Positions 2 through 36,435 of a DNA stretch of 64,000 nt are shown piece after piece. A program made the position numbers and the translations under genes. This DNA is from Candidatus Nanopelagicales bacterium. Lineage in GTDB: Bacteria; Actinomycetota; Actinomycetes; S36-B12. Within the stretch, counting starts at the first letter, position 1, and each line of letters opens with the position of its first letter. The notes under the pieces were generated by a model. The model saw only the letters and a program-made list of their open reading frames with translations, did no database searches and had not been told where the DNA came from. The stretch lies in contig JANRCR010000031.1 in NCBI GenBank assembly GCA_030726915.1, positions 7,672 to 71,671 on the forward strand, written 5' to 3'.

Positions 2-1468
2 TGTGGCGTCCGAGGAATCAACGTCGAGATCGTGCGCAATGGATCGCGAGGTCTGCTGTGGCTCGAACCGCTCGTCGAGGTGGAGACATCGCGGGGGCGC
101 ATGGGCTACGGCCCGGTCACGCCCGGCGACGTCCCGGGTCTCATCGACGGGGGCTTCCTTGAGGGTGCCCATCATGAGTTGGCGCTGGGCGTTGTCGACG
201 ACATACCGTGGCTGGCCCGCCAGCAGCGCGTGAGTTTTGCCCGGGTCGGCATCATTGATCCCCTTGATCTTGACGCCTATCGCGCCACCGGTGGCCTGCG
301 GGGGCTGCAGCGAGCGCTGCAGGAGTCGGCGGAGGAGATCGTCGGGGACGTGCTGGCCTCCGGGCTGCGGGGACGCGGTGGGGCCGGCTTCCCCGCAGGC
401 ATCAAATGGCGCACCGTCCTCGAGGCTGAATCGCTCGACAAGTACATCTGTTGCAACGCGGATGAGGGGGACAGCGGCACCTTCGCCGACCGCATGCTCA
501 TGGAGGGGGATCCCTTCACGCTCCTCGAGGGCATGGCGATCGCCGGTGTAGCCGTCGGTGCAACTCGTGGACTCATCTACGTGCGCTCCGAATACCCCGA
601 TGCCATCGCCACGCTGCGCACCGCCGTGGACATTGCACGCGTCGATGGCTGGCTCGGAGTCGACGTCATGGGCACGGGACGGACGTTTGACATCCGCGTC
701 GTTGAGGGAGCGGGATCCTACGTATGTGGTGAAGAGACCGCGATGCTGGAAAGCCTCGAGGGCAAGCGCGGCATGGTGCGGCCCAAGCCACCCATACCCG
801 CACTGAAGGGTCTCTTCGGGCAGCCGACCCTGGTGCACAACGTCTTGACCCTGTCGGCTGTGCCATCCATCATCGCCGATGGGCCGGGCGACTACCAGGC
901 ACTCGGAGTCGACCGTTCGCGCGGCACCCAGGTCTTCCAACTCGCGGGCAATCTTGCCCGTGGCGGCATTGTGGAGATCGCCTTCGGTGTCACCCTGCGG
1001 GAGCTCATCGAGGATTTCGGGGGAGGCACTCTCAGCGGGCGCCCCCTGCGGGCGGTGCAGGTCGGTGGACCACTCGGTGCCTATCTGCCGGCCGAGGCTC
1101 TCGACGTCTCGATGGATTACGAAGCACTCGCGGACTCCGGTGGTCTGCTCGGCCATGGCGGAGTCGTGGCATTCGATGACTCAATCGATATGGCCACCCA
1201 GGCGCGGTTTGCGATGGAGTTTTGTGCCGTGGAGTCCTGCGGCAAGTGCACGCCGTGCCGCATCGGCTCCACGCGTGGAATTGAAGTGATCGACAAGATC
1301 ACGGCGGGTGTCGATCGCGAGCTCAATCTGGTCCTCCTGGAGGACCTCTGCGCCACCATGACCGACGGATCACTGTGTGCCATGGGCGGCCTCACGCCCC
1401 TCCCGGTGCTCAGCGCTCTGGCACACTTCCCTGAGGACTTCCATCGCCCCCCTGAGGTGACGCCATGA
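2..1468 (+). CDS. fdsB: NAD-dependent formate dehydrogenase beta (diaphorase, NuoF-like) subunit; 5'-truncated by window edge
   Basis: NGSRGLLWLEPLVEV N-terminal motif, GLRGRGGAGFP, NADEGDSGTF, GAGSYVCGEET, ESCGKCTPCRIG and C-terminal SLC Fe-S motifs; frame open to position 2; ATGA overlap with the alpha subunit gene. Confidence 0.93.
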   Translation, partial: CGVRGINVEIVRNGSRGLLWLEPLVEVETSRGRMGYGPVTPGDVPGLIDGGFLEGAHHELALGVVDDIPWLARQQRVSFARVGIIDPLDLDAYRATGGLRGLQRALQESAEEIVGDVLASGLRGRGGAGFPAGIKWRTVLEAESLDKYICCNADEGDSGTFADRMLMEGDPFTLLEGMAIAGVAVGATRGLIYVRSEYPDAIATLRTAVDIARVDGWLGVDVMGTGRTFDIRVVEGAGSYVCGEETAMLESLEGKRGMVRPKPPIPALKGLFGQPTLVHNVLTLSAVPSIIADGPGDYQALGVDRSRGTQVFQLAGNLARGGIVEIAFGVTLRELIEDFGGGTLSGRPLRAVQVGGPLGAYLPAEALDVSMDYEALADSGGLLGHGGVVAFDDSIDMATQARFAMEFCAVESCGKCTPCRIGSTRGIEVIDKITAGVDRELNLVLLEDLCATMTDGSLCAMGGLTPLPVLSALAHFPEDFHRPPEVTP

Positions 1469-4281
1469 CACTGCTCCATGAGCCCGACTACGGCACCCCG
1501 GCCGCACTGTCCCTCGCCCGGGTTGAGGTCGTCGTGGATGGGGTGCCCGTGACCGTGCCCGCTGGTACGTCGGTCATGCGGGCCGCTGCCGAGGCTGGTT
1601 TCGACGTACCCAAACTCTGCGCCACCGACTCACTCCAGCCCTTTGGCTCCTGTCGCCTCTGCGTGGTCGAGATTGATGGCAAGAAGGGCACGCCGGCATC
1701 CTGCACCACGCCGTGCGAGCCGGGCATGGTCGTGCGCACCCAGACACCACGTGTCACGGAGTTGCGCCGCAATGTCATGGAGTTGTACATCTCTGATCAT
1801 CCCCTCGACTGTTTGACCTGTCCCGCCAACGGCGACTGTGAGTTGCAGGACATGGCCGGAGTCGTGGGCCTGCGCGAGGTGCGCTACGGCTATGACGGGG
1901 CCAATCATCTTGACGCTCCGACCGATGACTCCAATCCCTATTTTTCCTTCGATGAATCCAAGTGCATTGCCTGCAGCCGGTGCGTGCGGGCCTGTGATGA
2001 GATCCAGGGCACGTTCGCGTTGACGATCGTTGGTCGCGGATTTGACTCCAAGGTCAGCCCGGGGGGCACGTCCTTCATGGACAGTGAGTGCGTCTCCTGC
2101 GGTGCATGCGTGCAGGCCTGCCCGACGGCGACGCTTGAGGAAAAGTCCGTCATTGACCTCGGCATACCGACCCGGACCGTCCTGACCACCTGTGCCTACT
2201 GCGGTGTCGGTTGCTCCTTCAAGGCCGAGCTGCGCGGCGATGAGCTCGTGCGCATGGTGCCGGCCAAGGACGGTGGCGCCAACGAGGGCCACTCCTGCGT
2301 CAAAGGCCGCTTTGCCTGGGGCTATGCCACCCACCCCGATCGTGTCCTGACCCCACTCATCCGCGATGCCATCACGGAGCCGTGGCGGGAGGCGAGCTGG
2401 GAGGAGGCGATTGGTCACGCTGCCACACGCATCCGGGATATCCAGACTCGCTACGGGGTGGACAGCGTGGGTGGCATCACCTCCTCCCGATGCACCAATG
2501 AGGAAGTCTTCGTCGTACAAAAGATGGTCCGCGCCGCCTTTGGCACCAACAACGTCGACACCTGCGCGCGTGTATGCCATTCGCCGACCGGATATGGCCT
2601 CAAGCAGACCTTCGGTGCGTCGGCGGGCACTCAGGACTTCAAGTCGGTCGAGAGTGCCGACGTCATCCTGGTGATCGGAGCCAATCCCACCGATGCGCAT
2701 CCGGTCTTCGCATCCCGCATGAAGCGCCGACTGCGTGACGGTGCTCGCCTCATCATTGTGGATCCTCGACGCATCGATCTGGTCCGCTCAGCCCACATCA
2801 CAGCTGATCACCATCTGCAGCTGCAGCCGGGCACCAATGTCGCGGTCGTCAATGCGCTGGGCCATGTCATCGCCACCGAGGGTCTCATCGATCGCGACTT
2901 CGTCGCGCAGCGCTGCGACCTGGCGAGTTTTGCCGCCTGGGAGGCCTTCATTAGCCTCCCGGAGAATTCACCCGAGGCGGTCGAAGCCGTGAGCGGGGTG
3001 CCGGCTGAGGAGCTCCGCGCCGCCGCGCGGCTCTACGCCGCCGGTCCCAACTCGGCGGTCTACTACGGCCTGGGAGTCACCGAGCACAGCCAGGGCTCCA
3101 CCATGGTGATGGCCATGGCCAATATCGCCATGGCCACCGGCAATATCGGTCGGGACGGGGTGGGGATCAATCCCCTGCGCGGGCAAAACAATGTCCAGGG
3201 CTCATGTGACATGGGCTCCTTCCCGCATGAGTTGCCCGGCTATCGCCACGTCTCCGACGATGCGGTGCGCGAGCAGTTCGAGGTGCTCTGGGGTGCTGAT
3301 CTGCGCGGGGACCCGGGGATGCGCATTCCCAACATGCTCGATGCAGCCCTGACCGGACAGTTCAGAGCACTCTTTGTCCAGGGCGAGGACATCGCACAGT
3401 CCGATCCCAACACCCAGCATGTGCAGCGGGCACTCGAGGCGATGGATCTCGTCATCGTCCAGGACCTCTTCCTCAATGAGACCGCGCGCTATGCCCACGT
3501 CTTCCTACCGGGGACCTCCTTCCTGGAGAAGGACGGCACCTTCACCAACGCTGAGCGCCGGATCAATCGGGTGCGACCCGTCATGGCGGCCAAGACGGGC
3601 AAGCAGGAGTGGGAGATCATCTGCGACCTCAGCACGGCTCTCGGCTACCCCATGGCGTACGACTCCTCCAGCGAGATCATGGACGAGGTCGCGGCACTCA
3701 CGCCGACATTCGCGGGAGTGTCCTTCGCCCTGCTGGACGAGGTCGGCAGCGTGCAGTGGCCGTGCAACGCCGAACACCCCCTCGGTACGCCGATCATGCA
3801 CGTCGATGGTTTCGTCAGGGGCAAGGGTGCCTTCCAGATCACGGCATTCGTCCCCACCGACGAGCGCAGCACGCGGCGATACCCACTCCTTCTCACCACG
3901 GGTCGCATCCTGAGCCAGTACAACGTGGGTGCCCAGACGCGGCGAACGGCGAATGTCGCCTGGCATGACGAGGATCTGCTAGATATCCACGAATCCGATG
4001 CCGAGGCCAGGGGAATCACCGACGGCGGCTGGGTCACGATCGCGAGTCGCGTCGGAACGACGGTGATGAGGGCGCAGATTTCTGATCGAGTGCCCCCGGG
4101 AGTCGTCTACACCACGTTCCACTTCCCCGGCAGTGGTGCCAATGTCATCACGACGGAGTATTCCGATTGGGCCACCAACTGCCCCGAATACAAGGTGACC
4201 GCCGTGGAGATCACCCCGACGCTGCGCGGCCCCGATGCGCTCCTGGCGTCAGCAGAGGCCGACGCGGGGGCCCTGGCATAG
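1465..4281 (+). CDS. fdsA: Molybdopterin formate dehydrogenase alpha subunit (Cys ligand)
   Basis: N-terminal 2Fe-2S and 4Fe-4S motifs (CRLC, HPLDCLTC, CIACSRC, CVSCGAC), TCAYCGVGC, CARVCHS active site, PLRGQNNVQG, C-terminal TNCPEYK. Confidence 0.95.
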   Translation: MTLLHEPDYGTPAALSLARVEVVVDGVPVTVPAGTSVMRAAAEAGFDVPKLCATDSLQPFGSCRLCVVEIDGKKGTPASCTTPCEPGMVVRTQTPRVTELRRNVMELYISDHPLDCLTCPANGDCELQDMAGVVGLREVRYGYDGANHLDAPTDDSNPYFSFDESKCIACSRCVRACDEIQGTFALTIVGRGFDSKVSPGGTSFMDSECVSCGACVQACPTATLEEKSVIDLGIPTRTVLTTCAYCGVGCSFKAELRGDELVRMVPAKDGGANEGHSCVKGRFAWGYATHPDRVLTPLIRDAITEPWREASWEEAIGHAATRIRDIQTRYGVDSVGGITSSRCTNEEVFVVQKMVRAAFGTNNVDTCARVCHSPTGYGLKQTFGASAGTQDFKSVESADVILVIGANPTDAHPVFASRMKRRLRDGARLIIVDPRRIDLVRSAHITADHHLQLQPGTNVAVVNALGHVIATEGLIDRDFVAQRCDLASFAAWEAFISLPENSPEAVEAVSGVPAEELRAAARLYAAGPNSAVYYGLGVTEHSQGSTMVMAMANIAMATGNIGRDGVGINPLRGQNNVQGSCDMGSFPHELPGYRHVSDDAVREQFEVLWGADLRGDPGMRIPNMLDAALTGQFRALFVQGEDIAQSDPNTQHVQRALEAMDLVIVQDLFLNETARYAHVFLPGTSFLEKDGTFTNAERRINRVRPVMAAKTGKQEWEIICDLSTALGYPMAYDSSSEIMDEVAALTPTFAGVSFALLDEVGSVQWPCNAEHPLGTPIMHVDGFVRGKGAFQITAFVPTDERSTRRYPLLLTTGRILSQYNVGAQTRRTANVAWHDEDLLDIHESDAEARGITDGGWVTIASRVGTTVMRAQISDRVPPGVVYTTFHFPGSGANVITTEYSDWATNCPEYKVTAVEITPTLRGPDALLASAEADAGALA

Positions 4282-4283
4282 TC

Positions 4284-4493
4284 GTGAATTCTGAGAGTCT
4301 CTCCCGGATGGCCGGGCAGATTGCCGCCAACTGCGCAGGGCTCACCGAGGAGCAGGCGGTCACGCGGATCAGCGGTCATCTGCACTCCTTCTGGACACCG
4401 GTGATGATCGCTGAGTTCGGTGAGTTCGTCCGGGCCTACCCCGACGACGTCGACCCCCTGGTCCTCTGTGCGCTCGCCCGCCTCGACGCGTGA
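4284..4493 (+). CDS. fdsD: Formate dehydrogenase delta subunit
   Basis: LSRMAGQIA...HLHSFWTPVM...DPLV pattern of the FdsD family; GTG 2 bp after the fdsA stop (ORF-track start at 4167 is over-extended). Confidence 0.85.
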   Translation: MNSESLSRMAGQIAANCAGLTEEQAVTRISGHLHSFWTPVMIAEFGEFVRAYPDDVDPLVLCALARLDA

Positions 4494-4580: not shown

Positions 4581-4832
4581 ATGGCTGAGGACAACATTGA
4601 GGTAGGGGAATCCATCGAGGTCACCGAACTCATCGGGGATGACGGCTTGGTCATGGGCACCGTTGTCGACGATGTCATCGTCGTGACGAGCGAGGACGGC
4701 TCCGTGGTCGAAGAGGTCATTGACCTGTACGACGCGGAAGGCAATCTCGTGGCTGAGGAAGATGTCGTCGACGTGTATGACGCCGACGGCAACCTGGTCG
4801 CCGAGGCCGGAGAGATCATCGTCGAGGGCTGA
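4581..4832 (+). CDS. Small, extremely acidic repeat protein of unknown function
   Basis: 83 aa, good RBS (caggaagga), 26 Asp/Glu and no Lys/Arg/His, two 16-aa repeats containing YDA[E/D]GNLVAE. Confidence 0.75.
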   Translation: MAEDNIEVGESIEVTELIGDDGLVMGTVVDDVIVVTSEDGSVVEEVIDLYDAEGNLVAEEDVVDVYDADGNLVAEAGEIIVEG

Positions 4833-4835: not shown

Positions 4836-5189
4836 TCAACGGATGGAGACGTAGTACTTCACGATCGTCTCCTCGACATCCCAGCGGCCGTACCATCCGC
4901 GCGGGAAGACGACGGTGCTGCCTTCGGAGATCTCCGTGACCGCGCCGCTGGCATCCGTGACCCGGGCGCGTCCGGCGAGGATGATCACGGATTCCTCGTC
5001 CGGTCGGTCCTCGACCGTCCAGCCGCCGGGCGTGCACTCCCAGAGCCCGGTCTCGACGTTCTCCCACGTCTTGAGGACGCACCCGCGCGTCATCGGCGTG
5101 CCCGAGTCGGCACCGGGCTTCAGCCCCCAGTCTTCGAGCTGGTCCGCAAGTGACTGCCAGGTGCTTGCGATCACGACGGGATGACTCAT
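4836..5189 (-). CDS. Cupin domain protein (DUF861/cupin_3, EutQ-like)
   Basis: GLWECTPG...E...ILAGRA...G..VVFPRGWYGRWDVEE..KYY signature; GGAG RBS. Confidence 0.85.
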   Translation of the reverse strand: MSHPVVIASTWQSLADQLEDWGLKPGADSGTPMTRGCVLKTWENVETGLWECTPGGWTVEDRPDEESVIILAGRARVTDASGAVTEISEGSTVVFPRGWYGRWDVEETIVKYYVSIR

Positions 5190-5213: not shown

Positions 5214-6224
5214 CTAACTCCGGGGACCGGTGGATCCGCGGACGCGCAGTTGCGTCGGCATTCGGACGATACCGGGTTGAACCTCCTGTGTGCCCGCGCC
5301 AATCTGATCGAGCAGCGATTGCGCGGCCACGCTGCCCATCTCGGTCACGGGCTGAACAACGGTCGTCAGGTCGAGGTGCTCGCTCACGTCGTGACCGTCG
5401 ATGCCGACGATGGACACGTCCCGCCCTGCGACGAGCCCGTGCAGGCTCAGGGAGCGCAGTGCCCCGAATGCCATCTCGTCGCTCATGGCGAAGACGGCCG
5501 TAGGGGGCCTTGGCTGGGTGAGCAGGTTAGTCATGGCACGCTCGCCGCCCGCGATCGTGAAGTAGCCGTGCGTGGCCAGGCGTGGATCATTGTCGAGACC
5601 GTGCGCGGTGAGCACCTCGCGGAAGCCGCGCTCCCGATCGGTCTCGGCCGTGAAATGGGCCTCGACCGTGGACCCGCCGATCATTCCGATGCGCTCATGA
5701 CCCAGGTTGACCAGGTGCTGGGTCGCCTGGCGCGCTGCCTGCACGTCGTCGATGGCCACACCGGGGACTCCCTCGAGAGTGACCCCGACGAGCGATGTGG
5801 GCAGCCCGAGATCGAGGACCTCTGTGATCTGCGGATCGGTCGGCGGCATTGCGATGATGAGTGCACCGTCGACGCGTCGGCGCAGGCGTTGAGCAGCGCT
5901 CGGCTGATCGCTGGGTGCGGCGCTCTCAACGACGCCGAGGAGCAGCAGGTCCATCCCGGCGGCCTGCAGCACCGACTCGACGCCGGACAGGACCGTCGCG
6001 AAGTACCAGCGTGAGATGTACGGCGTAATCACGGCGATCGACCCGGTGCGTCCGGACGCCAGGCGCGAGGCGCTCGGTGAGGCGACGTAGTCCAGCCTTG
6101 CGGCGGCAGCCTTGATGCGGGCGCGGGTCGCGGCATTGACATTGGGCATACCGCGTAATGCCCTCGACACGGTCGCCGGCGAGACGCCCGCCTCATCCGC
6201 GACGTCCCGAATGGTGATGCCCAC
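5214..6224 (-). CDS. LacI family transcriptional regulator
   Basis: TIRDVADEAGVSPATVSRAL HTH, sugar-binding domain with AVFAMSDEMAFG and LTTVVQP; likely leaderless GTG start at 6224 (GACAAT 6 nt upstream). Confidence 0.92.
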   Translation of the reverse strand: MGITIRDVADEAGVSPATVSRALRGMPNVNAATRARIKAAAARLDYVASPSASRLASGRTGSIAVITPYISRWYFATVLSGVESVLQAAGMDLLLLGVVESAAPSDQPSAAQRLRRRVDGALIIAMPPTDPQITEVLDLGLPTSLVGVTLEGVPGVAIDDVQAARQATQHLVNLGHERIGMIGGSTVEAHFTAETDRERGFREVLTAHGLDNDPRLATHGYFTIAGGERAMTNLLTQPRPPTAVFAMSDEMAFGALRSLSLHGLVAGRDVSIVGIDGHDVSEHLDLTTVVQPVTEMGSVAAQSLLDQIGAGTQEVQPGIVRMPTQLRVRGSTGPRS

Positions 6225-6320
6225 GGGAGGATTGTCCGGTTTCAGTGAACGGCCCGCATGCATTTCATGAAACGGCCCCGGGTCTGGAGGGCGTGCCCCC
6301 CATGACAGGATGCTGCCCGC

Positions 6321-6392
6321 GCCTCCGTAGCTCAGTGGTAGAGCAACCGCCTTGTAAGCGGTAGGTCGTCAGTTCAATCCTGACCGGGGGCT
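6321..6392 (+). tRNA. tRNA-Thr (anticodon UGU), CCA not encoded
   Basis: GCCTCCG/CGGGGGC acceptor stem, AGCTCAGTGGTAGAGC D arm, ACCGC-CTTGTAA-GCGGT anticodon arm, GTTCAATC T loop. Confidence 0.96.
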
Positions 6393-8299
6393 CTCACATG
6401 CTCAGCCCCGGGCACCTCCGTGTTGAGCGGCGAATTCGCCCACCAGTCGACGAACACCCGCGCGACCGGCTCCAACCTCGGGTCCTCGCGCTGGTCAAGG
6501 GCGAGTTGATGGCACGCGTCACCGCCCACAATGCGATCACGTGCCCCCGCGTCGGCGCGGAATGAGGCGAGGAGTTCATCCAGCGGAAGGGTAGGACGCT
6601 GTGATGCGGCCTGAAGCGTGGACTCGAGCACGGATACGCCGCGGATCGCTTCCTCGCGCAGGCCTACTGCGTCCGTAGCGCGTCCGCCAGCCATGGCCAT
6701 CGCTGACCTGAGATAGGCGGCGCTTGACTCCGTGGCCTGTTTGGCTTGCTGGCCGATTTGGCGGCGGAGCCCGTAGGGGAAAGTCAGCAGTGTCAAGACT
6801 CCGGCAACGACGACGCCGAGGGTGATGTCCTCGATGCGGAGGTACTCCAGGTCTCTATCGGTCGTCCATTCCAGGACCGCAAGGTTCGTGAGGGCGAAGG
6901 GGGTGTAGGAAGCCTGCGCGAGGAAGGCGCCAGCATGGGACGCGATGGATGCCAGGAGCGCAAGGACGGGGAGGAGGACGACAAACGCGGGATAGGGTAG
7001 GGGAGCCAGCGTCGCTAGGGATGCCACGCAGATACCGACGATGGCGCCGACGGCCATGCGCATGGCCGTCGTCCCGCCGGATGTCGTCGAGAAGCTGACC
7101 TGTGTCACGCACAGTGCCGCAAGCACCACCCAGAGTCCGTGATCCAGCCCGATCAGGCGCACGAGCAGAACGCACAGGGCTATGGCGGCGCCGGTTCGCA
7201 GGGCGCTCGTAAACCATAGGGACCCGCGCGTCACATTGACCTGCAGGAGAGCGAGTGGCCGCCGGTCAGCCACGCTTCCGATGTCCGGCTCCGGGTACGC
7301 GCATCCTCGCGAGACCCCGGCGAGCCACAGCATGCGCATGGCAAGAATCGAGACCAGTCGCGCAGGGTAGTGCTCGCGCAGTTGGCCCGGTGATTCGCCG
7401 CCAAGATCGTGGAGATCGTCCCCGCGGGCGGCCGGAAGATCAGGCACTCGGCTAGGTGGCCGCTGAGACGTCAGGGCACTCGCGGCACACGAGAACGCCT
7501 CAGCTGATGCCGCCAGGAGGGCGTGCGAATGCTTCCCTCCATCATGCTCGTCAGCTCTAGAACGGTCGATCACGTCGAGAGCAGCCGTCCCCCATTGGGT
7601 TCCATCGACCATGGCGGCAAGGGCGCGTTGACGGCGACCGACAGCACCGAGCCGGACGTTATCCGCTTGGACGGTCAGTCGAATCCGCTCACGTGTCAGC
7701 CGGGCCCGCTCACGCGCTGCCCTGGCCTCCTCGGCACGCGAATCCGGATCGCAGATGGTTGCTGCATCCTGCAGCCAAGCAGCGACCAGATCTCGAATTC
7801 GATTGCCCGTCCTGTCGGGGAAGATCAAGACTCCCGCAACTGTCGCCATGGACGCGCCGATGAGCCAGGATCCGACGAGTTCAGGAATCTGCGTAGGCGA
7901 TGCACTCGACATCAGCGGCAGGAAGAAGGCGCCCTGCAGGCCGACCGAGGCCCGTGCGGCAAAGCCACGCAGCACGCGGACGTACGAGAAGATGAAGGAG
8001 ACGACGAACGCGCCCGCTACGGCGAGTGCCAGCCAGCCAGAGAGAACGCTTCCCAGTACGACGGCGAAGGTTCCCACGATGGCGGCTGACCCGTAGCCGA
8101 CGATACGTTCGCGCGTGCTTCCGGGGTAATCGAGGAAGTAGAGCATGCAGATGACCGCAAATGAGCCGAGTACGACGGCAGTGGCATCCGTGAAGAGGAG
8201 CCACACAGTCACGTCGACGACGGACAATGTCACAGCGAAGCGGACCGCGGAGTGCCAGACGTCGGGCTGGCGAGCGATCTGCCAGGACTTTGCCGCCAC
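6374..8299 (-). CDS. FUSC/aromatic-acid-exporter-like inner membrane protein
   Basis: Two hydrophobic bundles separated by a soluble region; ALRTGAA, HGLWVVLAAL, RIEDITLG motifs typical of FUSC family; 3' end overlaps the tRNA antisense. Confidence 0.75.
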   Translation of the reverse strand: MAAKSWQIARQPDVWHSAVRFAVTLSVVDVTVWLLFTDATAVVLGSFAVICMLYFLDYPGSTRERIVGYGSAAIVGTFAVVLGSVLSGWLALAVAGAFVVSFIFSYVRVLRGFAARASVGLQGAFFLPLMSSASPTQIPELVGSWLIGASMATVAGVLIFPDRTGNRIRDLVAAWLQDAATICDPDSRAEEARAARERARLTRERIRLTVQADNVRLGAVGRRQRALAAMVDGTQWGTAALDVIDRSRADEHDGGKHSHALLAASAEAFSCAASALTSQRPPSRVPDLPAARGDDLHDLGGESPGQLREHYPARLVSILAMRMLWLAGVSRGCAYPEPDIGSVADRRPLALLQVNVTRGSLWFTSALRTGAAIALCVLLVRLIGLDHGLWVVLAALCVTQVSFSTTSGGTTAMRMAVGAIVGICVASLATLAPLPYPAFVVLLPVLALLASIASHAGAFLAQASYTPFALTNLAVLEWTTDRDLEYLRIEDITLGVVVAGVLTLLTFPYGLRRQIGQQAKQATESSAAYLRSAMAMAGGRATDAVGLREEAIRGVSVLESTLQAASQRPTLPLDELLASFRADAGARDRIVGGDACHQLALDQREDPRLEPVARVFVDWWANSPLNTEVPGAEHVRAPGQD

Positions 8300-8385
8300 C
8301 TCAATCCCTTCTCGGTAGTCTTTCTAGACACTAGTGGGCCAACTGCCCATACGTGCCCGCGTAATCGCGTCGGAAGGACCGTGCG

Positions 8386-9312
8386 ATGTCAGTTCGGACG
8401 ATGGGTGAGGCGAGTCCCTTGGGCTCCGGCGCCACTGCGGCCGTGGCGCTCGGCGGCGGTGGCGAGTGGTTCGTCGCGTGGATGGTCGGCTACGCCAACG
8501 GGCTCCTTGAGGCGGGAGTCGACCTTGCGAAGGCTGATGTGACCATCGGAACCAGCGCGGGCGCCATCGTCGGCGCTGCGATCAAGGGCGGTCGGCTCGC
8601 TGAATTGACCGATGCACTCAAGCAACTCGGTGCCAACCCAGCGATGGCCAACAAGGAACTCAACATCAGCGCGGGTGCTCCATCACAGGCGCGCGCGCAA
8701 ACGGTCATGGGGCAGACCACTGAGATCACGCCGGCAACACTCCAGCAGATCGGGCGGGCGGCGATGGCCTCCCGTAACGCTCCCGATAACAAGTACATCG
8801 CCTCCGTGGAAGGCTTGCTCGGCCTCACGACGTGGCCGCAGGGACACCACACCACGGCGACCGATTGCTACACCGGTGAGTCGGTCATCGCGAGCAGCGA
8901 TTCAGGCGTCACGATTTCTCAGGCCGTCGCCGCGAGTTCCTCGCTTCCCGGAGTCAATGGACCGACCTGGCTTAGCGACCGGCTCTGCATGGACGGAGGG
9001 GTTAGCGACTCGAGCACGCATGCCCAGATGCTCGAAGGGGCAAGGTCGGTCCTCATTATCGCGATGTTCGACTTCCTTGCCAATCCGCCAAAGCACGTCA
9101 ACCCGTCGTTCGGCATTGCCGAGCGGGTGCATCCGGGCACCGCCCAACGAGAAGCCGCGGCATTGAGGGCCAGCGGCAGCACGGTCCATGTCACCATCGC
9201 CAATCCGGATCCGACAACGGACTTCATGGCTGCGGCCACGATGGGACCGGCCATGGCCGACGGCATGGCTCGCGGCAAGGCTGATGCGCCGAGCCTCACG
9301 GCATTTCACTGA
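8386..9312 (+). CDS. Patatin-like phospholipase
   Basis: LGGGGE oxyanion loop, GTSAG nucleophile, ASSSLPG, DGG catalytic Asp. Confidence 0.88.
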   Translation: MSVRTMGEASPLGSGATAAVALGGGGEWFVAWMVGYANGLLEAGVDLAKADVTIGTSAGAIVGAAIKGGRLAELTDALKQLGANPAMANKELNISAGAPSQARAQTVMGQTTEITPATLQQIGRAAMASRNAPDNKYIASVEGLLGLTTWPQGHHTTATDCYTGESVIASSDSGVTISQAVAASSSLPGVNGPTWLSDRLCMDGGVSDSSTHAQMLEGARSVLIIAMFDFLANPPKHVNPSFGIAERVHPGTAQREAAALRASGSTVHVTIANPDPTTDFMAAATMGPAMADGMARGKADAPSLTAFH

Positions 9313-9797: not shown

Positions 9798-9818
9798 GAC
9801 GCACCTCCTAGGGCAAGC

Positions 9819-21140: not shown

Positions 21141-21184
21141 GCATAACGAGGCCATTGTTTGCGGCCCGCACCTATCTTCTTCAC

Positions 21185-21312
21185 CGTTCTTCGGGAGATT
21201 TTGCGAGGAAAACTCACTCGAATTCCCGAAGAACGCAGACTCCCGAAGAATCCGGACCCCCGGGGAACCCGAATTCCCGAAGAACCCGGGAAACCCGGAC
21301 TCCCGGGGAACC
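21185..21312. repeat. 17-bp-period tandem repeat (5.5 units) with an inverted upstream copy
   Basis: Units cgaattcccgaagaacg, cagactcccgaagaatc, cggacccccggggaacc, cgaattcccgaagaacc, half unit, cggactcccggggaacc (21219-21312); inverted cgttcttcgggagatt at 21185. Confidence 0.85.
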
Positions 21313-21321
21313 GTGAAGAGG

Positions 21322-26693: not shown

Positions 26694-27466
26694 GCGGCTC
26701 CAATCTTTCGTGACGGGTCGGATCGGTCGGGTCTGAGGGCGGTGCCGATGTCTTCTGCGGCATCACGGACGGTGCGGGCGATCCCGGGAAGGTGCGCGGG
26801 TGTGAGGCGCATACTCGGCCCAGAGACGGCCACGGCTGCCACCACGGTGCCATCAGCGGAGGAAATGGGCGCGGCCACGGCGACCAGTCCGGGCTCTAGC
26901 TCGGAGTCCACGATGGCAACTCCTTCTTCGCGGACGCGGTCGAGCACTCGGCCGAGTTCCGCGCGAGAGGTGATGGTCCGATCGGTGAGGCGCGGTAGGC
27001 GACCGGCGGGGAGCGGAGTGCCATGTGCCAAAAAGACGCGACCGAGTGCGCTGCAGTGAAAGGGCACCGGTCGGTCGAGCCAGTTGACCGCACCGAGGAG
27101 GTAGGCCGAATCCACCTGGGCGATCTGGCGCACCTCACCAGCCAGGGGCACGGCAAGATTGACCGTCTCGCCTGTCCGAGCACCGAGTGCATCGAGATAC
27201 GGCTGCGCGAGGCGCAGGAGATCGTCCTCTGGCCGTAAGGACAGGGCATAGTCGGTGATCTGCGTGCCCGGCTGCCACGCACCCGTCCCCGTGCGCTGCA
27301 GCAGGCCGTTGCGCTCCAGGCTTGTCGTCAGTCTCGACAGGGTGCTCTTGGGTAGGCGAGTTGTCCCGGCGAGGTCGGCAAAACTCACCGGTTCGGTGGA
27401 CCCGAGGACGGCCAGCAGCACGGCGGCGGCGCGATCCACCGCCTGAGTGCCGACCGGTCCTGCCAC
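26690..27466 (-). CDS. IclR family transcriptional regulator
   Basis: QAVDRA..VL, LPKSTLSRL HTH, GETVNL, SALGRVFLA, E.EPG..AVAAP. Confidence 0.92.
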   Translation of the reverse strand: MAGPVGTQAVDRAAAVLLAVLGSTEPVSFADLAGTTRLPKSTLSRLTTSLERNGLLQRTGTGAWQPGTQITDYALSLRPEDDLLRLAQPYLDALGARTGETVNLAVPLAGEVRQIAQVDSAYLLGAVNWLDRPVPFHCSALGRVFLAHGTPLPAGRLPRLTDRTITSRAELGRVLDRVREEGVAIVDSELEPGLVAVAAPISSADGTVVAAVAVSGPSMRLTPAHLPGIARTVRDAAEDIGTALRPDRSDPSRKIGAA

Positions 27467-27498: not shown

Positions 27499-27536
27499 AG
27501 TTCCACCATATGGAACTCTACTTCCAATTATGGAGT
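27499..27536. promoter_or_regulatory. Putative IclR operators between the divergent iclR and mttB-like genes
   Basis: Perfect AGTTCCA-N5-TGGAACT palindrome (27499-27517) plus a degenerate TTCCA-N4-TGGAG copy (27522-27535) in an AT-rich intergenic region. Confidence 0.65.
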
Positions 27537-27583
27537 GTAGGATCATCAGACAAACCGGTCAAGGCCACATTCAGGGAGATCCC

Positions 27584-29050: not shown

Positions 29051-30727
29051 ATGCCCAGGGGATATGACTACATCATCGTCGGCGGCGGCTCCGCAGGATC
29101 CGCACTTGCCGCACGTCTCAGCGAGGATTCATCGACCACGGTCCTCGTCCTCGAGGCCGGACGCCCCGACTATCCCTGGGATGTCTACATCCACATGCCG
29201 GCGGCGTTGACCTTCCCGATCGGCAACAAACTCTATGACTGGATGTATGCATCCCAGCCCGAGCCGCATATGAACAACCGCCGGGTGCACCACGGTCGCG
29301 GCAAGATCCTGGGCGGGTCGAGCAGCATCAACGGCATGATCTTCCAGCGTGGCAATCCCCTGGACTATGAGCGCTGGGCAGCAGATCCGGGGATGGATTC
29401 CTGGGGCTATGCCCAGTGCCTGCCCTACTTCAAGAAGATGGAGGACTGCCGCGCTGGCGCTGACGAATGGCGCGGCAAGGACGGTCCGCTCATCCTGGAG
29501 CGTGGTGAGGCGAAGAACCCGCTTTTTGCCGCATTCTTCGAAGCCGTCCAAGAGGCCGGGCACTCCCTGACTGCTGATGTCAATGGATACAAGCAGGAGG
29601 GCTTTGCGTCGTTCGATCGCAATGTGCACAACGGACGGCGCTACTCGGCGACGAAGGCCTACCTACGCCCCGCGATGTCCCGGCCCAATCTCACGGTCAA
29701 GACACGCGCGCACGTCACCCGCATCACGATGGACACCTCGGGTGACGAGCCCCGCGCAACCGGCGTTGACGTGTCCCTTGGTGGCAAACGTCCCGTCCAT
29801 GTCCGTGGAGGGGAGGTGATCCTGTGCGGAGGCGCATTCAACTCGCCCCAACTTCTCCAACTGTCCGGGATCGGCAATGCTGACCATCTGCGATCGGTCG
29901 GGGTTGATCCTGTGCATCATCTGCCCGGCGTGGGCGAAAACCTGCAGGATCATCTCGAGGTCTATGTGCAGCATGCGTGCACCCAGCCCGTGTCTTTGAA
30001 TCCTAATCTTCAGTTCTGGCGGCGGCCGATCATCGGGGCCGAGTGGCTCTTCCTCCGATCAGGTCCCGGTGCCTCGAATCACTTTGAAGCCGGTGGCTTC
30101 ATCCGCAGCAACGATGGTGTCGAATATCCCAATCTCATGTACCACTTCCTGCCGATCGCCGTGCGCTACGACGGCACGTCGATTGCCGAGGGTCACGGCT
30201 ATCAGGTGCACATCGGTCCCATGTATTCCGATGCCCGAGGTCGACTCTGGATCACGAGTGCGGATCCGATGGCGCCCCCGGCGTTCGTCTTCAACTACCT
30301 GTCCACCGAGCAGGATCGCCGGGAGTGGATCGAGGCGATTCACAAGACCCGAGAGATTCTTGAGCAATCGGCCTTCGCTCCCTACAGCGGAGGGGAGATC
30401 TCACCGGGAGCGGACGTGTCCTCCGATGATGAGATTCTCGACTGGGTCCGTCGCGATGGTGAGACGGCGTACCACCCGTCCTGCACCAACAGGATGGGTG
30501 TCGACGAGATGTCGGTTGTCGATCCACTCACGATGAAGGTGCATGGCACCCAAGGAGTTCGCGTGGTTGATGCGTCCGCGATGCCCTACGTCACCAATGG
30601 CAACATCTACGCGCCCGTGATGATGATGGCGGAGAAGGCCGCCGACATCATCAAGGGAGCCACACCCCTGCCCCCGGAACACGCCCCCTTCTACCGCCAC
30701 CACATCCAGGCTGGGTCCCATGCCTGA
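29051..30727 (+). CDS. betA: Choline dehydrogenase (GMC oxidoreductase)
   Basis: [58 protein letters not shown]. Confidence 0.94.
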
Positions 30728-32210
30728 CCTCTATATCGATGGTTCATGGATCCCTGCCGCCGAAGGGGGTACGCGGGAGATTCGCTGCCCTGCCGATGGC
30801 GAGGTTGTCCGTGTGGTGGACGAGGCAACGGCGGTGGACACCGAGCGAGCGATCGCCGCGGCCCGCCGGGCCTTCGATGATGGGCGATGGAGCGGGGTGG
30901 CCATGGCCGAGCGTGGCCGACTCCTCGACCGCGTGGCGGATCTACTCGAGAGGGATGTCGAGGTGATTGCTCGAGCGGAATCCCTCGACACGGGCAAGAG
31001 ATTCGCCGAATCCGAGTACGACGTGGCCGATGTTGCGCGAACCTTCCGCTACTTCGCGGGCCTTGCCGCAGGCGATGTGCTCGGTGGCCGTATCGTCGAT
31101 GCGGGCAATGCGGATGTGCGTTCTCGCATTGAATACTCACCGGTCGGAGTTTGCGGGCTCATCACTCCCTGGAATTACCCCCTGCTGCAGGCTGCGTGGA
31201 AGGTGGCACCGGCGCTGGCCGCCGGCAATACCTTCGTCCTCAAGCCCAGTGAGTTGACCCCGTCGACGTCGATTCATCTCATCCGGCTTCTTGCTGAGGC
31301 GGGACTGCCGGAGGGTGTCGCCAATCTCATCCTGGGAGCGGGGGCGACCGCAGGGGCCCCACTGGCGGTGAATCCCGATGTTGACCTGGTGTCCTTCACC
31401 GGTGGGCTCATCACGGGTCGGAGGATCATGGCCGAGGCGGCCGCGACGGTCAAGAAGGTCGCCCTCGAACTCGGCGGCAAGAATCCCAACATCATCTTCG
31501 CGGACGCCGACCTCACGGCGGCCGTCGATAACGCGCTCACCGCTGTCTTCCTACACAGCGGGCAGGTGTGCTCTGCCGGCGCGCGCCTGCTGGTCGAGGA
31601 GTCGATCCATGACCGTGTCGTTGACGAGATTGTGCGCCGCGCTGAGCGCATCCGGCTCGGTGGTCCCTTTGATCCCCTGGCCGAGACCGGGCCCCTGATC
31701 TCTGTCGGCCATCGGGACAAGATCGCGGCGTACGTCGCCGCCGCGATTGCCGAGGGTGCCGTCCTGCGCTGCGGTGGATCCGCTCCGGATCCGGGCGAAT
31801 ACCCCGCACTGGCCGACGGCTGCTACTACCGTCCCACCGTGCTCGATAACTGCGTCAGTGACATGACATGTGTGCAGGACGAGTCCTTTGGCCCGGTCCT
31901 CACGGTCGAGGTATTCACCTCGGAGGCCGAGGCCATCCGTCTCGGCAATGACACGATGTACGGCCTCGCGGGTGCGGTGTGGACATCGGATGCGGGCAAG
32001 GCCGAGCGCGTTGCAAGCGCTCTGCGGCACGGCACCATCTGGATCAACGATTACCACCCCTACCTACCGCAGGCGGAGTGGGGCGGATTCAAACAGTCCG
32101 GTGTCGGGCGTGAACTCGGTCCGACCGGACTTCACGAGTATCTCGAGGCCAAGCATGTCTACCGCAACCTCTCGCCTGCCCCGAGCGGCTGGTTCTCCCA
32201 GGAGGCATGA
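30720..32210 (+). CDS. betB: Betaine aldehyde dehydrogenase
   Basis: [46 protein letters not shown]; coupled to betA. Confidence 0.87.
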
Positions 32211-33277
32211 CGATGTCGACGTCCACGTCACCCAGCACCGAGACCCCCGCCATCAGCGTGCGAGGGCTCTGGAAGGTCTTCGGCCCGAAGTCCGACAGTG
32301 TCGTTGGCTCGCCGCTGGCCGATCTGCCACGCGAGGAGTTGCTGGCACAAACGGGGTGCACCGCTGCCGTGCGCGATGTCTCCTTTGAGGTGGCCGAGGG
32401 CGAAGTCTTCGTCGTCATGGGACTGTCGGGCTCGGGCAAGTCCACCCTCGTGCGCTGCCTCACGCGCCTCATTGACTCGACCGCAGGTGAGGTGATCATC
32501 GAGGGTGAAGACATCCTCAAGGCCTCCGCCTCGGAGTTGCGCCATCTGCGCCGCACGGAGTTTTCCATGGTGTTCCAGCACTTCGGCCTGCTGCCCCACC
32601 GCAAGGTGATCGACAACATCGCCTACCCACTGGAGATTCAGGGCGTCAAGAAGGATGTCCGCTACGCGCGGGCCGAAGAGGTCATCCAGCTCGTGGGGCT
32701 GAGCGGCTACGCCAATGCCTATCCGGAGCAGTTGTCCGGTGGCATGCAGCAGCGGGTCGGTCTGGCCCGCGCGCTCGCCGTGGATCCCGATGTGATGTTC
32801 CTCGATGAGCCCTTCAGTGCACTGGATCCCTTGATTCGCCGGGATATGCAGTCCGAAGTGATCCGGCTGCATCGCGAACTCGGTAAGACCATGGTCTTCA
32901 TCACCCACGACCTTGCCGAGGCTATGAAACTCGGCGATCGAATCGCCATCATGCGCGATGGCGCGATCGTCCAGATGGGCACGGCAATGGATCTGGTGCT
33001 GCACCCCGCGGATGCCTACGTCCAAGACTTTCTCCGTGACATTCCCAAGAGCCACGTGCTGACCCTCGGTGTCATCGCTCGTCCCCGACGGGCGGACGAG
33101 CCCGCAGATGGTCCGACGTTGCCCGGGGACATGATCATCAAGGCGGCGACCCACGCGATCATCGCCGCGCACGCACCGGTACGGGTGATGGACGGTGATC
33201 GCGAGATGGGTGTCGTGGGCAGCGATGATGTGCTGAGCCTGATCGCAGGGGACCCGGTCTCGGAGTTGGACGACTGA
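32207..33277 (+). CDS. Glycine betaine/choline ABC transporter ATP-binding protein (ProV/OpuAA-like)
   Basis: [48 protein letters not shown]. Confidence 0.93.
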
Positions 33278-33279
33278 CC

Positions 33280-35235
33280 ATGGGACTCACGGGCGTCCTC
33301 CGGTTGCGTTGGGTCCAGGCCCTCGTTGTTCTTGGCGTGTGGTTTGTCGTTGCCACGCTCCTCAAAGGCGTGCAAACGCAGGAGCTTTCCACGGCCACGG
33401 ACTCGCCGTTCACCGCTTGGATGCGCGATGTCGCGGCGGCCATCCGCGGCAATCGCACGGAGAGCCCTGTTTTCATTTACTTCTTCAACCCCATCCGAGG
33501 CTTTATCGAGGGTTTCATCGAAATCATCATGTCGGTCATCTCGATGCCGGCCCAGGGCAATCTCATCCCCCTCCTCGGCTGGTTTGGAGTCTTCGTCCTC
33601 ATCGGCTACATCGTCTACGCCAGTTCCAATCTGCGTACTGCGCTCTTCAGCATGTTCATGCTGCTTCTGTGCGGGATGCTCGGCATGTGGGTGATCACCA
33701 TGGACACCCTGGCCATGACACTGGGTGCGGTCTTCCTGTCCCTCATCGTCGCCCTACCCCTCGGAGTGTGGGCCGGTCTCAATGACAGGGTCATGGCGAC
33801 CCTGCGACCCGCCCTTGACCTCGCCCAGGTGCTACCCACGCTGGTCTACCTCGCACCGCTAGCCCTCGTCTTCCTCATCGGCATCGCCTCGGCCACGATC
33901 GCCACGATGATCTACTCCATCCCCATCTGCATCCGCATCACCGCTCACGCCATCAAGTCCCTCAAGGCGGGCCCCATCGAGGCAGCGGAGGCGGCTGGAT
34001 CCACCCGGTGGCAGTTGCTGACCAAGGTGCAACTCCCGATGGCCAAGAGCACCCTGATCCTCGCGGTCAACCAGACGACGCTGGCGGCGCTGTCCTTCGT
34101 CGTCATCGCGGCGCTGATCGGCGCGCCCGGCCTCGGCAAGCCGGTCATCGAGGCGCTGATCATCCGCAACGTGGGTGACGGTGTTGTTGCGGGGCTAGCC
34201 GTCGTCTGCCTGGCGATCCTGCTGGATCGAGCGACCACGGCCGCGGTCAATCGAGACCAGCATGGCTTCGCCGCCTCCGACGCGGCGAAGGTGCGGCGGC
34301 GGATTGGGCTTGTGGCCGGCGGACTCTTCACGATCGTGGCGATCGTGCTGTCACGACAGGTCCTCTGGTTTGCGGTCTTCCCCGAATCACTGAACTTCGG
34401 CAAGCAGGTGGCTGGAGTGGCTGACGCACTCGAGGAGTGGATCACCAGCAACCTCGACTTCGTCACCGTGACGGGCAGCGAGTGGTTCACCATCTGGATC
34501 CTCAATCCGCTCCAGGGTGTTCTGGCGGAGTCACCATGGTGGCTGACGCTTATCGCGGTCACGCTCCTCGCCTTCATCCTGGCGGGGCGCACGGTCGGGA
34601 TCCTGGTGTTTTTCCTGCTGGCGCTGATCATGGGCACGGGATTGTGGAATGACACGATGCTGACACTGTCTATGACGCTGCTCGCGACGGTGTTTGTCGT
34701 CATCATCGGCATCGTCGTCGGGGTTTGGGCCGGTCGCAGCGCCCGCGTGGATCGATTCCTCAAGCCCTTCTTGGATGCCGGACAGACCATGCCGGCATTC
34801 GTCTATCTCGTTCCGGTGCTCGCGCTCTTCGGGCCGACACGGTTTGCCGCCATCGTCCTCGGTGTTGTGTACGCCGCTCCCGTGGTCATCCGCATCGTCG
34901 CCGACGGTATTCGCAAGGTCCCCAAGGAGTCGGTTGAAGCCGCCATCTCCGCAGGGTCGACGAATCTGCAGGTCATCACCAAGGTGCAGTTGCCGATCTC
35001 GCGACGTTCCATTCTGCTCGGTGTTAACCAGGGCCTCATCTTCGTGCTGGCGGTGGTCGTCATCGGCGGTTTCGTCGGGGCCGGTGGCCTCGGCTACCTG
35101 GTCATCGTGGGCCAGTCCAAGCCGGAACTTGCCGGCAAGGGGCTCGCGGCCGGCATCGCTATCGTCCTCCTGGGCATCATTTTGGACCGAATTGCGCAGG
35201 GCCGACCGGAAAAGTCGACCCAGGGACACCACTAG
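33280..35235 (+). CDS. Glycine betaine ABC transporter permease with two fused ProW-like domains
   Basis: Duplicated P.LD..Q..P..VYL.P, EAA...GS...Q...KVQLP, NQ, GLG motifs. Confidence 0.9.
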   Translation: MGLTGVLRLRWVQALVVLGVWFVVATLLKGVQTQELSTATDSPFTAWMRDVAAAIRGNRTESPVFIYFFNPIRGFIEGFIEIIMSVISMPAQGNLIPLLGWFGVFVLIGYIVYASSNLRTALFSMFMLLLCGMLGMWVITMDTLAMTLGAVFLSLIVALPLGVWAGLNDRVMATLRPALDLAQVLPTLVYLAPLALVFLIGIASATIATMIYSIPICIRITAHAIKSLKAGPIEAAEAAGSTRWQLLTKVQLPMAKSTLILAVNQTTLAALSFVVIAALIGAPGLGKPVIEALIIRNVGDGVVAGLAVVCLAILLDRATTAAVNRDQHGFAASDAAKVRRRIGLVAGGLFTIVAIVLSRQVLWFAVFPESLNFGKQVAGVADALEEWITSNLDFVTVTGSEWFTIWILNPLQGVLAESPWWLTLIAVTLLAFILAGRTVGILVFFLLALIMGTGLWNDTMLTLSMTLLATVFVVIIGIVVGVWAGRSARVDRFLKPFLDAGQTMPAFVYLVPVLALFGPTRFAAIVLGVVYAAPVVIRIVADGIRKVPKESVEAAISAGSTNLQVITKVQLPISRRSILLGVNQGLIFVLAVVVIGGFVGAGGLGYLVIVGQSKPELAGKGLAAGIAIVLLGIILDRIAQGRPEKSTQGHH

Positions 35236-35349
35236 ACCCTCGGGAGCCGTGGGGTTCCGGGAGCGATACGCATCCGTTATGCGTATTCGCCCGTGTCGCT
35301 TGGGTCGCCTGCCTACGATGACGGAGACATCTACCTTCCGGGAGGAAGA

Positions 35350-36369
35350 ATGAAGCAAGTTGGTAAAGGCGCGGGACTCATGGTCGCGCTTGCTGCAGCC
35401 GGGCTGGTCCTGGCGGCTTGCGGCGGCAGCGTTAACGAGGCGACCTCGTCGTCAGCGGCACCGGAGTCCTCCGCGGCACCCGAAGCATCCAGCTCGGCTC
35501 CGGCCCCCGACAACACCGCCTGCGGTGAGTGGGGCGTTGCGATGCACGCGTGGGTGGGTTACACAGCCTCCGCTCAGGTGCTCAGCGACGTGGCGAGGGA
35601 GAAGCTCGGTTGCACGATCGACCAGATCACCCTGGACGAAGCCGGCGTTACCTACGACGCGATGGAGGCCGGCTCTGTCGACGTCATTATCGAAGACTGG
35701 GGCGGCGGACGTTGGCAGGAGTGGGTTGACCGCGGCGCCATCGTTGAGGTTGGCCTGAATGGCAACGTGGGTCTCATCGGAATGTTCGTCCCGCAGTGGA
35801 TGTGTGACGAAAATCCCGACATCACCGACGGCACCAAACTCAATGAGTACGCCGACCTCTTCCAGACGCCTGAGTCCGGTGACAAGGGAGCCTGGTACGA
35901 AGGCCCCCCCGGCTACACCACCATCGGCGAGAAGATCATCGAGGCCTATGACTTGAACTACAAGATCATCAATACAGGGTCTGAAGCAGCGCTGATCGAG
36001 GCCTTCACCAAGGGCACCGAGGATAAGACTCCGGTTCTCGGCTACTTCTATGAGCCGCAGAACTTCCTCGCCAAGGTCCCGCTGTGCCGCATCAACTTCC
36101 CGGCCAACGACTGGACCGATGCGGCCAAGGCGAGTGGTCTCACCGATTACCCCGAGACTCCGCTCGTGAAGCTCGCGACGCTGGCGCTCATGGATTCGGG
36201 CAGCCCGTTTGCCACACTCCTCCAGAACTTCGAGTGGACTAACGAGGACCAGAACCAGGTCGCACTCGACATCGAGTCCGGCATGACCCCGGAGGAGGCG
36301 GCCCAGAAGTGGATCGATGCCAACCCGGACAAGGTCACCGCATGGCTTGAGGGCACGGGAGCTTCCTGA
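35350..36369 (+). CDS. Glycine betaine ABC transporter substrate-binding lipoprotein (ProX/OpuAC-like)
   Basis: LAAC lipobox, Ser/Ala/Pro linker, DVIIEDW, GSEAAL, YFYEP, AA.KW...NP..V..WL; ATG after GGAGG. Confidence 0.88.
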   Translation: MKQVGKGAGLMVALAAAGLVLAACGGSVNEATSSSAAPESSAAPEASSSAPAPDNTACGEWGVAMHAWVGYTASAQVLSDVAREKLGCTIDQITLDEAGVTYDAMEAGSVDVIIEDWGGGRWQEWVDRGAIVEVGLNGNVGLIGMFVPQWMCDENPDITDGTKLNEYADLFQTPESGDKGAWYEGPPGYTTIGEKIIEAYDLNYKIINTGSEAALIEAFTKGTEDKTPVLGYFYEPQNFLAKVPLCRINFPANDWTDAAKASGLTDYPETPLVKLATLALMDSGSPFATLLQNFEWTNEDQNQVALDIESGMTPEEAAQKWIDANPDKVTAWLEGTGAS

Positions 36370-36394
36370 CCCGCTGATTCGCATGCACGACCTG

Positions 36395-36435
36395 ATGTCG
36401 CAGGGCCCCGGCCAATGGCCGGGGCCCTGCGACAT
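36395..36435 (+). terminator. Intrinsic terminator-like hairpin
   Basis: Perfect 19-bp stem atgtcgcagggccccggcc-aat-ggccggggccctgcgacat 25 nt after the SBP stop. Confidence 0.85.

Follow-up and report, generated by a model that had tools for sequence, protein, structure and literature searches.

Gene content of the locus

The DNA analysed here (the window, 64,000 nucleotides (nt) of contig C31) belongs to G000, a 2.2-Mb genome that is 95% complete, and encodes a probable cobalamin-dependent pathway of glycine betaine degradation (Table 1). Its core consists of two divergent operons: iclR-mtgC-metV-metF-mtgD-ramA-DUF1638 on the minus strand, in which iclR overlaps the start of the gene run, and mtgB-betA-betB-opuA on the plus strand. 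Two further modules accompany them: an array in which a GntR-family regulator gene is followed by the gene of a dimethylglycine/sarcosine dehydrogenase-family enzyme (DMGDH), etfB, etfA and fhs, and the genes of an NAD-linked formate dehydrogenase. The full FdsGBAD set was found, comprising an alpha subunit with a NuoG-like N-terminus, Nuo51-like and NuoE-like subunits and FdsD, together with FdhD.

Genes were called from Pfam and NCBIfam profile matches to the window proteins, with start codons refined. Every gene listed in an initial annotation of this DNA was recovered at its place by these profiles, but the list did not include the GntR/FCD-family regulator, and fdsG and fdhD are outside the window, immediately ahead of its start. 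An open reading frame (ORF) at 17022-17702, considered as an unknown protein, is in the wrong frame; the real gene is that of the GntR regulator in the neighbouring frame. The G+C content of the window is 60-69%. The cluster MetF is the sole recognisable methylenetetrahydrofolate reductase (MTHFR) of G000, and MtgD matches the methyltransferase 2yck of the PDB with 154 bits. Four DMGDH-family paralogues are encoded in the genome, and etfBA adjoins the copy in the window.

Table 1. Features of the cluster and the genes between its modules (window positions unless contig C31 is given).
Feature	Position	Strand	Profile match or remark
fdhD, divergent from fdsG	C31:6098-6916		FdhD-NarQ; upstream of window
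fdsG	C31:7116-7595		2Fe-2S_thioredx; just upstream of window
fdsB, NAD/FMN-binding formate dehydrogenase subunit	2-1468 (5' open)	+	Complex1_51K, NADH_4Fe-4S
fdsA, molybdopterin formate dehydrogenase alpha subunit, NuoG-like N-terminus	1465-4281	+	TIGR01591, 899.5 bits (cut-off 666); Pfam
fdsD	4167-4493	+	PF11390 FdsD; longest ORF, real start probably later
Very acidic protein of 83 amino acids (aa)	4581-4832	+	
EutQ-like cupin	4836-5189	-	
LacI, FUSC and patatin genes	5214-9312		Insert
GyrI-like protein and MFS transporter, downstream of fhs	9345-11057	-	Kept in G016 and G001
fhs, formate-tetrahydrofolate ligase	11078-12745	-	PF01268, 869 bits, full length
etfA	12749-13708	-	
etfB	13705-14469	-	
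DMGDH	14466-16973	-	DAO, FAO_M, GCV_T, GCV_T_C
GntR/FCD-family regulator, head of the DMGDH-etf-fhs array	17029-17697	-	
Prolyl oligopeptidase, 273-aa ORF of lower G+C, repeat-rich spacer	17793-21321		Insert relative to congeners
DUF1638 protein	21322-21933	-	
ramA, RamA/RACo-type reductive activase of corrinoid proteins	21914-23773	-	Fer2; RACo linker, middle and C-terminal domains
mtgD, mtgA-like methyl-tetrahydrofolate:corrinoid methyltransferase	23770-24633	-	Pterin_bind; PRK07535, 311 bits (cut-off 259)
metF	24641-25588	-	
metV	25585-26034	-	
mtgC, stand-alone corrinoid protein	26037-26693	-	PF02607 B12-binding_2, PF02310 B12-binding
iclR, IclR-family regulator, first gene of the minus-strand operon	26690-27466	-	
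17-bp palindrome GTTCCACCATATGGAAC, predicted operator	27500-27516		iclR-mtgB spacer
mtgB, pyrrolysine-free MttB-family methyltransferase, 479 aa	27584-29023	+	PF06253, 628.7 bits, profile 21-500 of 500
betA, choline dehydrogenase	29051-30727	+	TIGR01810, 839 bits (equivalog cut-off 732)
betB, aldehyde dehydrogenase	30720-32210	+	
OpuA/ProVWX-type ABC transporter: ATPase, double permease, OpuAC binding protein	32207-36369	+	

Conservation of gene order and distribution

The initial annotation described these genes as one supercluster. They are split by unrelated genes in G000 at two places (Table 1), but in two congeners, G009 and G015, the same genes form an uninterrupted block, opuAA-betB-betA-mtgB/iclR-mtgC-metV-metF-mtgD-ramA-DUF1638-gntR-DMGDH-etfB-etfA-fhs, followed by fdsDABG/fdhD. 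This comparison identifies the genes that separate the modules of G000 as insertions. G030, a genome from another family, has the same content in a different order, with fdsGBA directly after the DUF1638 gene and fhs directly after mtgB. Chance does not account for the grouping, since the genes adjoin one another in G009 and G015 and are grouped anew in G030; because G030 keeps the content in another order, the grouping points to function rather than inheritance alone.

Comparison within the order covered 24 congeners and 16 genomes from other families. MtgB is encoded in 23 of the congeners (the one miss is a genome 68% complete) and in two of the 16 others. Related loci were sought by tblastn (E ≤ 1e-10, at least half of the MtgB query aligned), and neighbours of mtgB were counted at the 47 related loci, from 80 fetched, that had full 10-kb flanks. 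MtgC and MtgD were encoded near mtgB at all 47, IclR at 46, RamA at 45 and DUF1638 at 40; BetA, BetB and OpuAA were found at 30 each, DMGDH at nine, MetF and MetV at eight, Fhs at six and Fds at none. Conservation across the phylum is that of the core only.

Relatives of MtgB number in the thousands; the best 120 are 75-90% identical, and the named ones come from Nanopelagicales or Actinomycetes metagenome-assembled genomes. On contigs representing one genome per species, at least 577 stretches encode an MtgB relative (577 of 600 among the matches listed), and the best 80 of these stretches have actinobacterial or 'uncultured bacterium' titles, cultured Nocardioides included. Among the carriers are relatives from lake plankton and cultured Nocardioides of soil, such as N. 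panacisoli JCM 16953, N. terrigena KCTC 19217 and N. iriomotensis NBRC 105384 (L092, L093, L102). Plasmid records with an MtgB match number 196, all less than 60% identical; by organism tally and listed rows they are Pseudomonadota, nearly all alphaproteobacteria. Four runs of one lake-water metatranscriptome study contain contigs 90-95% alike over the cluster, among them contigs of 7.6 and 8.8 kb with even depth in one run, which may represent DNA carry-over; since contigs cannot show transcription or rank genes, they were set aside.

A predicted operator shared by mtgB and fdsG

The palindrome in the iclR-mtgB spacer has the form GTTCCA-N5-TGGAAC, of which G000 contains exactly two copies, and each of five shuffled genomes none. 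The second of these is located between fdhD and fdsG, 670 nt ahead of the window. With one mismatch allowed, the palindrome is present no more than 260 nt upstream of mtgB at 72 of the 77 related loci that have both iclR and mtgB (exact at 47), and only three matches occur elsewhere in 1.37 Mb. A matrix derived from these sites and applied to G000 scored the two sites at 29.9 and 24.6 bits and the next at 14.5, under the shuffled maxima of about 17; the core of the matrix is circular by construction, but the counts in relatives are not. On the fds side, the palindrome is exact in G016 and has one mismatch in G009, G001 and L037. Judged from this distribution, the IclR regulator probably binds the 17-bp palindrome and thereby governs the fds operon together with the mtg/bet divergon.

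Copies with one mismatch elsewhere in G000 were discounted as being at chance level (four observed, two to seven in shuffled genomes). Four bases past the palindrome (27521-27537) is CTTCCAATTATGGAG, a degenerate repeat of it whose spacer is shorter by one base. Upstream of gntR (17698-17740), the boxes TCTGATGTACA and AACTGATATATCT, about 40 and 18 nt before the gene start, are conserved in G000, G009 and G015, and may represent either a promoter or an operator for GntR.

Corrinoid supply and respiratory functions

Neither G000 nor any of 41 relatives yielded a match to CbiC. By its gene content, the host is a vitamin B12 auxotroph that makes no corrin ring and scavenges corrinoid. The single cobalamin riboswitch of G000 (C47:5444-5575) precedes an uptake/salvage operon. 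The genes downstream of the riboswitch (L023:1445-10737) comprise two unknown ORFs, a CbiQ-like component, a double ABC ATPase and an ECF S-component, followed by a metallo-beta-lactamase-CobU fusion, CobT and CobS; this looks like an operon for corrinoid uptake and remodelling. FolD is encoded outside the window, and two COX1 genes represent haem-copper oxidases. Of the functions that the initial annotation suggested seeking elsewhere in the genome, FolD and a probable corrinoid uptake operon were found, but a canonical electron-transfer flavoprotein:quinone oxidoreductase (ETF-QO) was not.

Methionine synthesis in the absence of MetH

No MetH was recognised in G000, which has neither a match to the activation domain (PF02965) nor a fused homocysteine domain; the two matches to PF02574 are both in ORFs of about 300 aa. 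Within the genus, PF02965 is represented only by a 72-aa fragment in one of the 24 genomes. A MetH of about 1170 aa is present in 14 of the 16 genomes from other families, the two without it being G030 and G037. The homocysteine methyltransferase encoded on contig C24 (292 aa) has stand-alone orthologues in 21 of the 24 congeners and in G025, G030 and G037, and its best match in every other genome is the N-terminus of MetH, with 35-41% identity. MtgC follows the same pattern across genomes; the two coincide exactly with the genomes that lack MetH, with G025 as the one addition. In G037, MtgB was not detected, and MtgC, MtgD and RamA are encoded side by side. All 16 outgroup genomes possess MetH, or the stand-alone pair of homocysteine module and MtgC, or both (G025), as a split methionine synthase predicts. 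This pattern suggests that MtgC, MtgD and the stand-alone homocysteine module probably form the B12-dependent (split) methionine synthase of an organism that lacks MetH. The distribution of a paralogous homocysteine methyltransferase on contig C54 was uninformative. The initial annotation overlooked this likely role of MtgC and MtgD, as well as the B12 auxotrophy.

The corrinoid module might even be mainly anabolic: MtgC, MtgD, RamA and DUF1638 would then be a split methionine synthase, MtgB would only feed betaine methyls into methionine and S-adenosylmethionine, and Fhs and Fds would serve general formate and one-carbon (C1) housekeeping. This alternative gains from the way in which the stand-alone pair complements the missing MetH, from the retention of MtgC-MtgD-RamA in G037 without MtgB, from the status of MetVF as sole MTHFR, and from the presence of FdsA and Fhs in the MtgB-less relatives G032, G033 and G038. 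Nevertheless it appears rather unlikely, considering that the operon of mtgB also contains betA, betB and genes of a betaine-type transporter, that G009 and G015 have DMGDH-etf-fhs and fds in one continuous stretch with the corrinoid module, into which they are fused in G030, and that mtgB and fdsG have an operator in common. According to the published work on Ruegeria and Phaeobacter, both functions fall to one set of modules there, and the anabolic role is therefore a difference of emphasis.

The substrate of MtgB

MtgB was considered as a pyrrolysine (Pyl)-dependent trimethylamine methyltransferase, MttB, and rejected as such: mtgB contains no amber codon or other stop in frame, and the protein scores 271 bits with TIGR02369 (cut-off 525) and 122 bits with the Pyl-type MttB of PDB entry 7xcl. 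When solved relatives are ranked by bit score against PDB chains, the top chain is 4yyc (450 bits), a putative trimethylamine methyltransferase and presumably a Sinorhizobium protein, followed by the betaine methyltransferase of Desulfitobacterium hafniense (2qne, 396 bits; 9yce, 393 bits). In the latter, betaine is bound by the four residues Y97, R312, H348 and F356, as given in PMC13080624. Positions counted by eye on the alignment indicate that Y97, R312 and H348 are all retained, being invariant in 83 of 83 sequences, and that F356 is replaced by Gly (AGWLEGG versus AGILQYF in D. hafniense). The tryptophan W352, four residues before the F356 position and also invariant in all 83, may or may not substitute for F356.

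A substrate other than glycine betaine, such as proline betaine, carnitine, gamma-butyrobetaine or a choline derivative, would be compatible with the replacement of F356, with the diverse quaternary amines that MttB-family paralogues accept (PMC13080624, PMC12478193), and with the fact that no NCBIfam model names MtgB. It is nonetheless quite improbable, given the three retained residues, the position of mtgB as the sole MttB-family gene of G000, its presence in one operon with betB, with a betA whose product exceeds the equivalog cut-off and with the gene of an OpuAC-type binding protein, and the dimethylglycine/sarcosine-type dehydrogenase that in congeners comes after the corrinoid module. 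G025, from another family, encodes a second MttB-family paralogue, distant at 26% identity, beside a second corrinoid protein that is 43% identical to MtgC (C77:4335-6304); this paralogue may act on another methyl donor.

That fds and fhs merely lie nearby and do not serve betaine use is very improbable, for although unrelated genes separate the modules in G000, and Fhs and Fds are rare or missing within 10 kb of mtgB across the phylum, the inserts are missing from congeners, the order is kept in G009 and G015, the different arrangement of G030 is tighter, and the sole two exact palindromes of G000 are those at mtgB and fdsG.

Proposed pathway

The cluster probably represents an actinobacterial version of the aerobic, cobalamin-dependent MtgBCD pathway for glycine betaine. 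The OpuA-type transporter would import choline or betaine, and BetA and BetB would convert choline to betaine. MtgB would take a single methyl from betaine and place it on the Co(I) corrinoid protein MtgC, and MtgD would pass it to tetrahydrofolate (THF), with RamA and DUF1638 keeping the corrinoid cofactor reduced. Oxidation of methyl-THF to methylene-THF would fall to MetVF. DMGDH-family enzymes are predicted to demethylate dimethylglycine and sarcosine, delivering electrons to EtfAB and C1 units to THF, and this array is headed by a GntR-family regulator. FolD, Fhs and FdsGBAD would convert the C1 units to formate and CO2, with gain of ATP and of NADH for an aerobic respiratory chain. MtgC and MtgD probably double as methionine synthase parts with the stand-alone homocysteine module, their corrinoid being scavenged. 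The route from choline to CO2 by way of betaine, B12-dependent demethylation and methyl-THF had been proposed in the initial annotation, and gains support from the comparative evidence: synteny, the operator shared by mtgB and fdsG, FolD, the haem-copper oxidases and the closest solved relatives of MtgB.

Several observations count against this assignment. MtgC scores 196 with MtgC_2, its best NCBIfam model, below the cut-off of 370, and RamA scores 428, below its curated cut-off of 800. One betaine-binding residue of MtgB, F356, is replaced. The palindrome on the fds side is weak or missing in G015, G012, G030 and G025, and no copy precedes gntR-DMGDH-etf-fhs in G000. A search of the 95%-complete genome for canonical ETF-QO (PF05187) gave no match, and the EtfD-like candidate, a 774-aa protein with Fer4 and two CCG domains, was recognised by domain architecture only. 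As the sole MTHFR, MetVF may run mainly in the reductive direction. The pattern of MetH absence amounts to one or two loss events among kin that are not independent, and two core-MetE-like proteins of G000 could make methionine instead. An oxygen-dependent betaine route is possible because two GbcA-like Rieske oxygenases are encoded (189 and 141 bits; GbcA equivalog cut-off 670).

At L125 (C34:18008-26013), the gene of the Rieske oxygenase that scored 189 bits neighbours those of a PotABCD-like ABC transporter and of a DMGDH-family paralogue; demethylation of a methylated amine may have a second locus here.

A broader proposal is about evenly balanced between true and false: that one corrinoid/pterin module replaces MetH and also starts betaine catabolism in a widespread B12-auxotrophic freshwater genus, that the IclR regulator with its phylum-wide 17-bp palindrome ties this module to NAD-linked formate dehydrogenase, and that methionine supply, osmolyte turnover and energy gain would all hinge on scavenged corrinoids.

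Other features of the window

The acidic 83-aa protein and the EutQ-like cupin adjoin fdsD in five congeners, and may be part of the formate dehydrogenase unit. The LacI, FUSC and patatin genes are absent between fhs and fds in G016, G001 and G009. The MFS and GyrI-like proteins are 99.5% and 97% identical to those of the congener G001, compared with 89% for the flanking FdsA, which suggests that their stretch was recently exchanged between lineages. From 19926 to 21321 the G+C content falls to 0.60, the 273-aa ORF belongs to no family, and the spacer is dense in short repeats resembling CCCGAAGAA and CCCGGGGAAC; this segment is absent from congeners, and a related lake contig has a 26-nt deletion and small insertions there.

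The flank at 36459-64000 contains core actinobacterial genes, among them fbiB, cofD and fbiC of F420 biosynthesis, lpqB with an mtrB-like kinase, sahH, and genes for a GT2 glycosyltransferase, a DUF5719 protein, phosphomannomutase and mannose-6-phosphate isomerase. The F420 biosynthesis genes, the mtrB-lpqB pair and sahH fit an actinobacterial host. The carrier is a small freshwater actinobacterium that scavenges vitamin B12.

Comparison with known systems

The aerobic MtgBCD glycine betaine pathway of Ruegeria and Phaeobacter (Mausz et al. 2025, PMC12478193) comprises MtgB, MtgC, MtgD, a MetF paralogue, RamA, DUF1638 and THF-linked C1 oxidation, and shares MtgC and MtgD with a split methionine synthase. 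The split synthase was reported by Price et al. 2018 (PMC5764234), where DUF1638 is tied to corrinoid reactivation in Phaeobacter. The function of the pathway in proteobacteria rests on mutants (PMC12478193; for mtgB1 and mtgC of Phaeobacter, preprint 10.64898/2025.12.19.695462). MtgBCD/MtgCDE of Ruegeria pomeroyi and Phaeobacter inhibens resemble the cluster of G000 in the non-Pyl MtgB, the stand-alone MtgC, MtgD, the RamA-like activase, DUF1638, an MTHFR gene adjoining mtgD, THF-linked C1 oxidation, the absence of MetH together with a stand-alone homocysteine module, and the dependence of an aerobe on B12. They differ in that the host here belongs to the Actinomycetota, with an MtgB below 60% identity to all 196 plasmid-borne proteobacterial homologues; that the genes are clustered here and scattered in the roseobacter models; that the MTHFR here is of the MetV-MetF type and the only one; that an IclR regulator has its own palindrome; and that the host appears to scavenge corrinoid rather than make the corrin ring.

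MtgB, MtgC and MtgA of D. hafniense (2qne, 9yce; PMC13080624) likewise form a three-component route from betaine through a corrinoid to THF, and MtgB shares Y97, R312 and H348. The host is anaerobic, F356 stands where Gly is found here, the match to MtgB is weaker than that of 4yyc, and MtgC is of a different lineage (PMC12478193).

Plasmid p1 of Paracoccus methylovorus (NZ_CP070369.1) has the same gene set in the same divergent layout, with an MttB-family gene opposite genes for a B12-binding protein, DUF1638, MetV-like and MetF proteins, a methyl-THF:cobalamin methyltransferase and an ASKHA/RamA protein. Its MtgB is 48% identical, a GlxA-family regulator takes the place of IclR, and no betAB, Opu, DMGDH, fhs or fds genes are present in the 19 kb examined. 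The chloromethane (cmu) pathway of Methylobacterium (CmuA/CmuB, MetF2, FolD, PurU) is similar in that an aerobe passes a methyl group through a corrinoid to THF and onward through methylene-THF and formyl-THF to formate and CO2. It differs in methyl donor and first enzyme, and in hydrolysis by PurU instead of Fhs, so that no ATP is gained at this step.

If the proposed pathway is correct, B12-dependent betaine demethylation reaches from marine proteobacteria to the Actinomycetota, and corrinoid cross-feeding would be a control point for the turnover of methylated amines, perhaps also for methionine synthesis, in organisms unable to make B12. The idea lends itself to direct testing through the predicted operator and the cultured carriers.

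The accessible literature does not describe the cluster in Actinomycetota, and offers only a read tally (5% of TARA mtgC reads) and MttB-family expression by peat Actinobacteriota; Dataset S2 of PMC12478193 may list actinobacterial genomes. A term search of the Nanopelagicales paper PMC12817590 gave no mention of betaine. The initial annotation had regarded the system as not known in actinobacteria, which agrees with this literature as far as the cluster is concerned, but the pathway itself had already been published for aerobic proteobacteria (PMC12478193), and so what is new is the lineage, not the mechanism. To the proteobacterial pathway the present analysis adds a predicted regulon, the pattern of MetH replacement and the B12 auxotrophy of the host.

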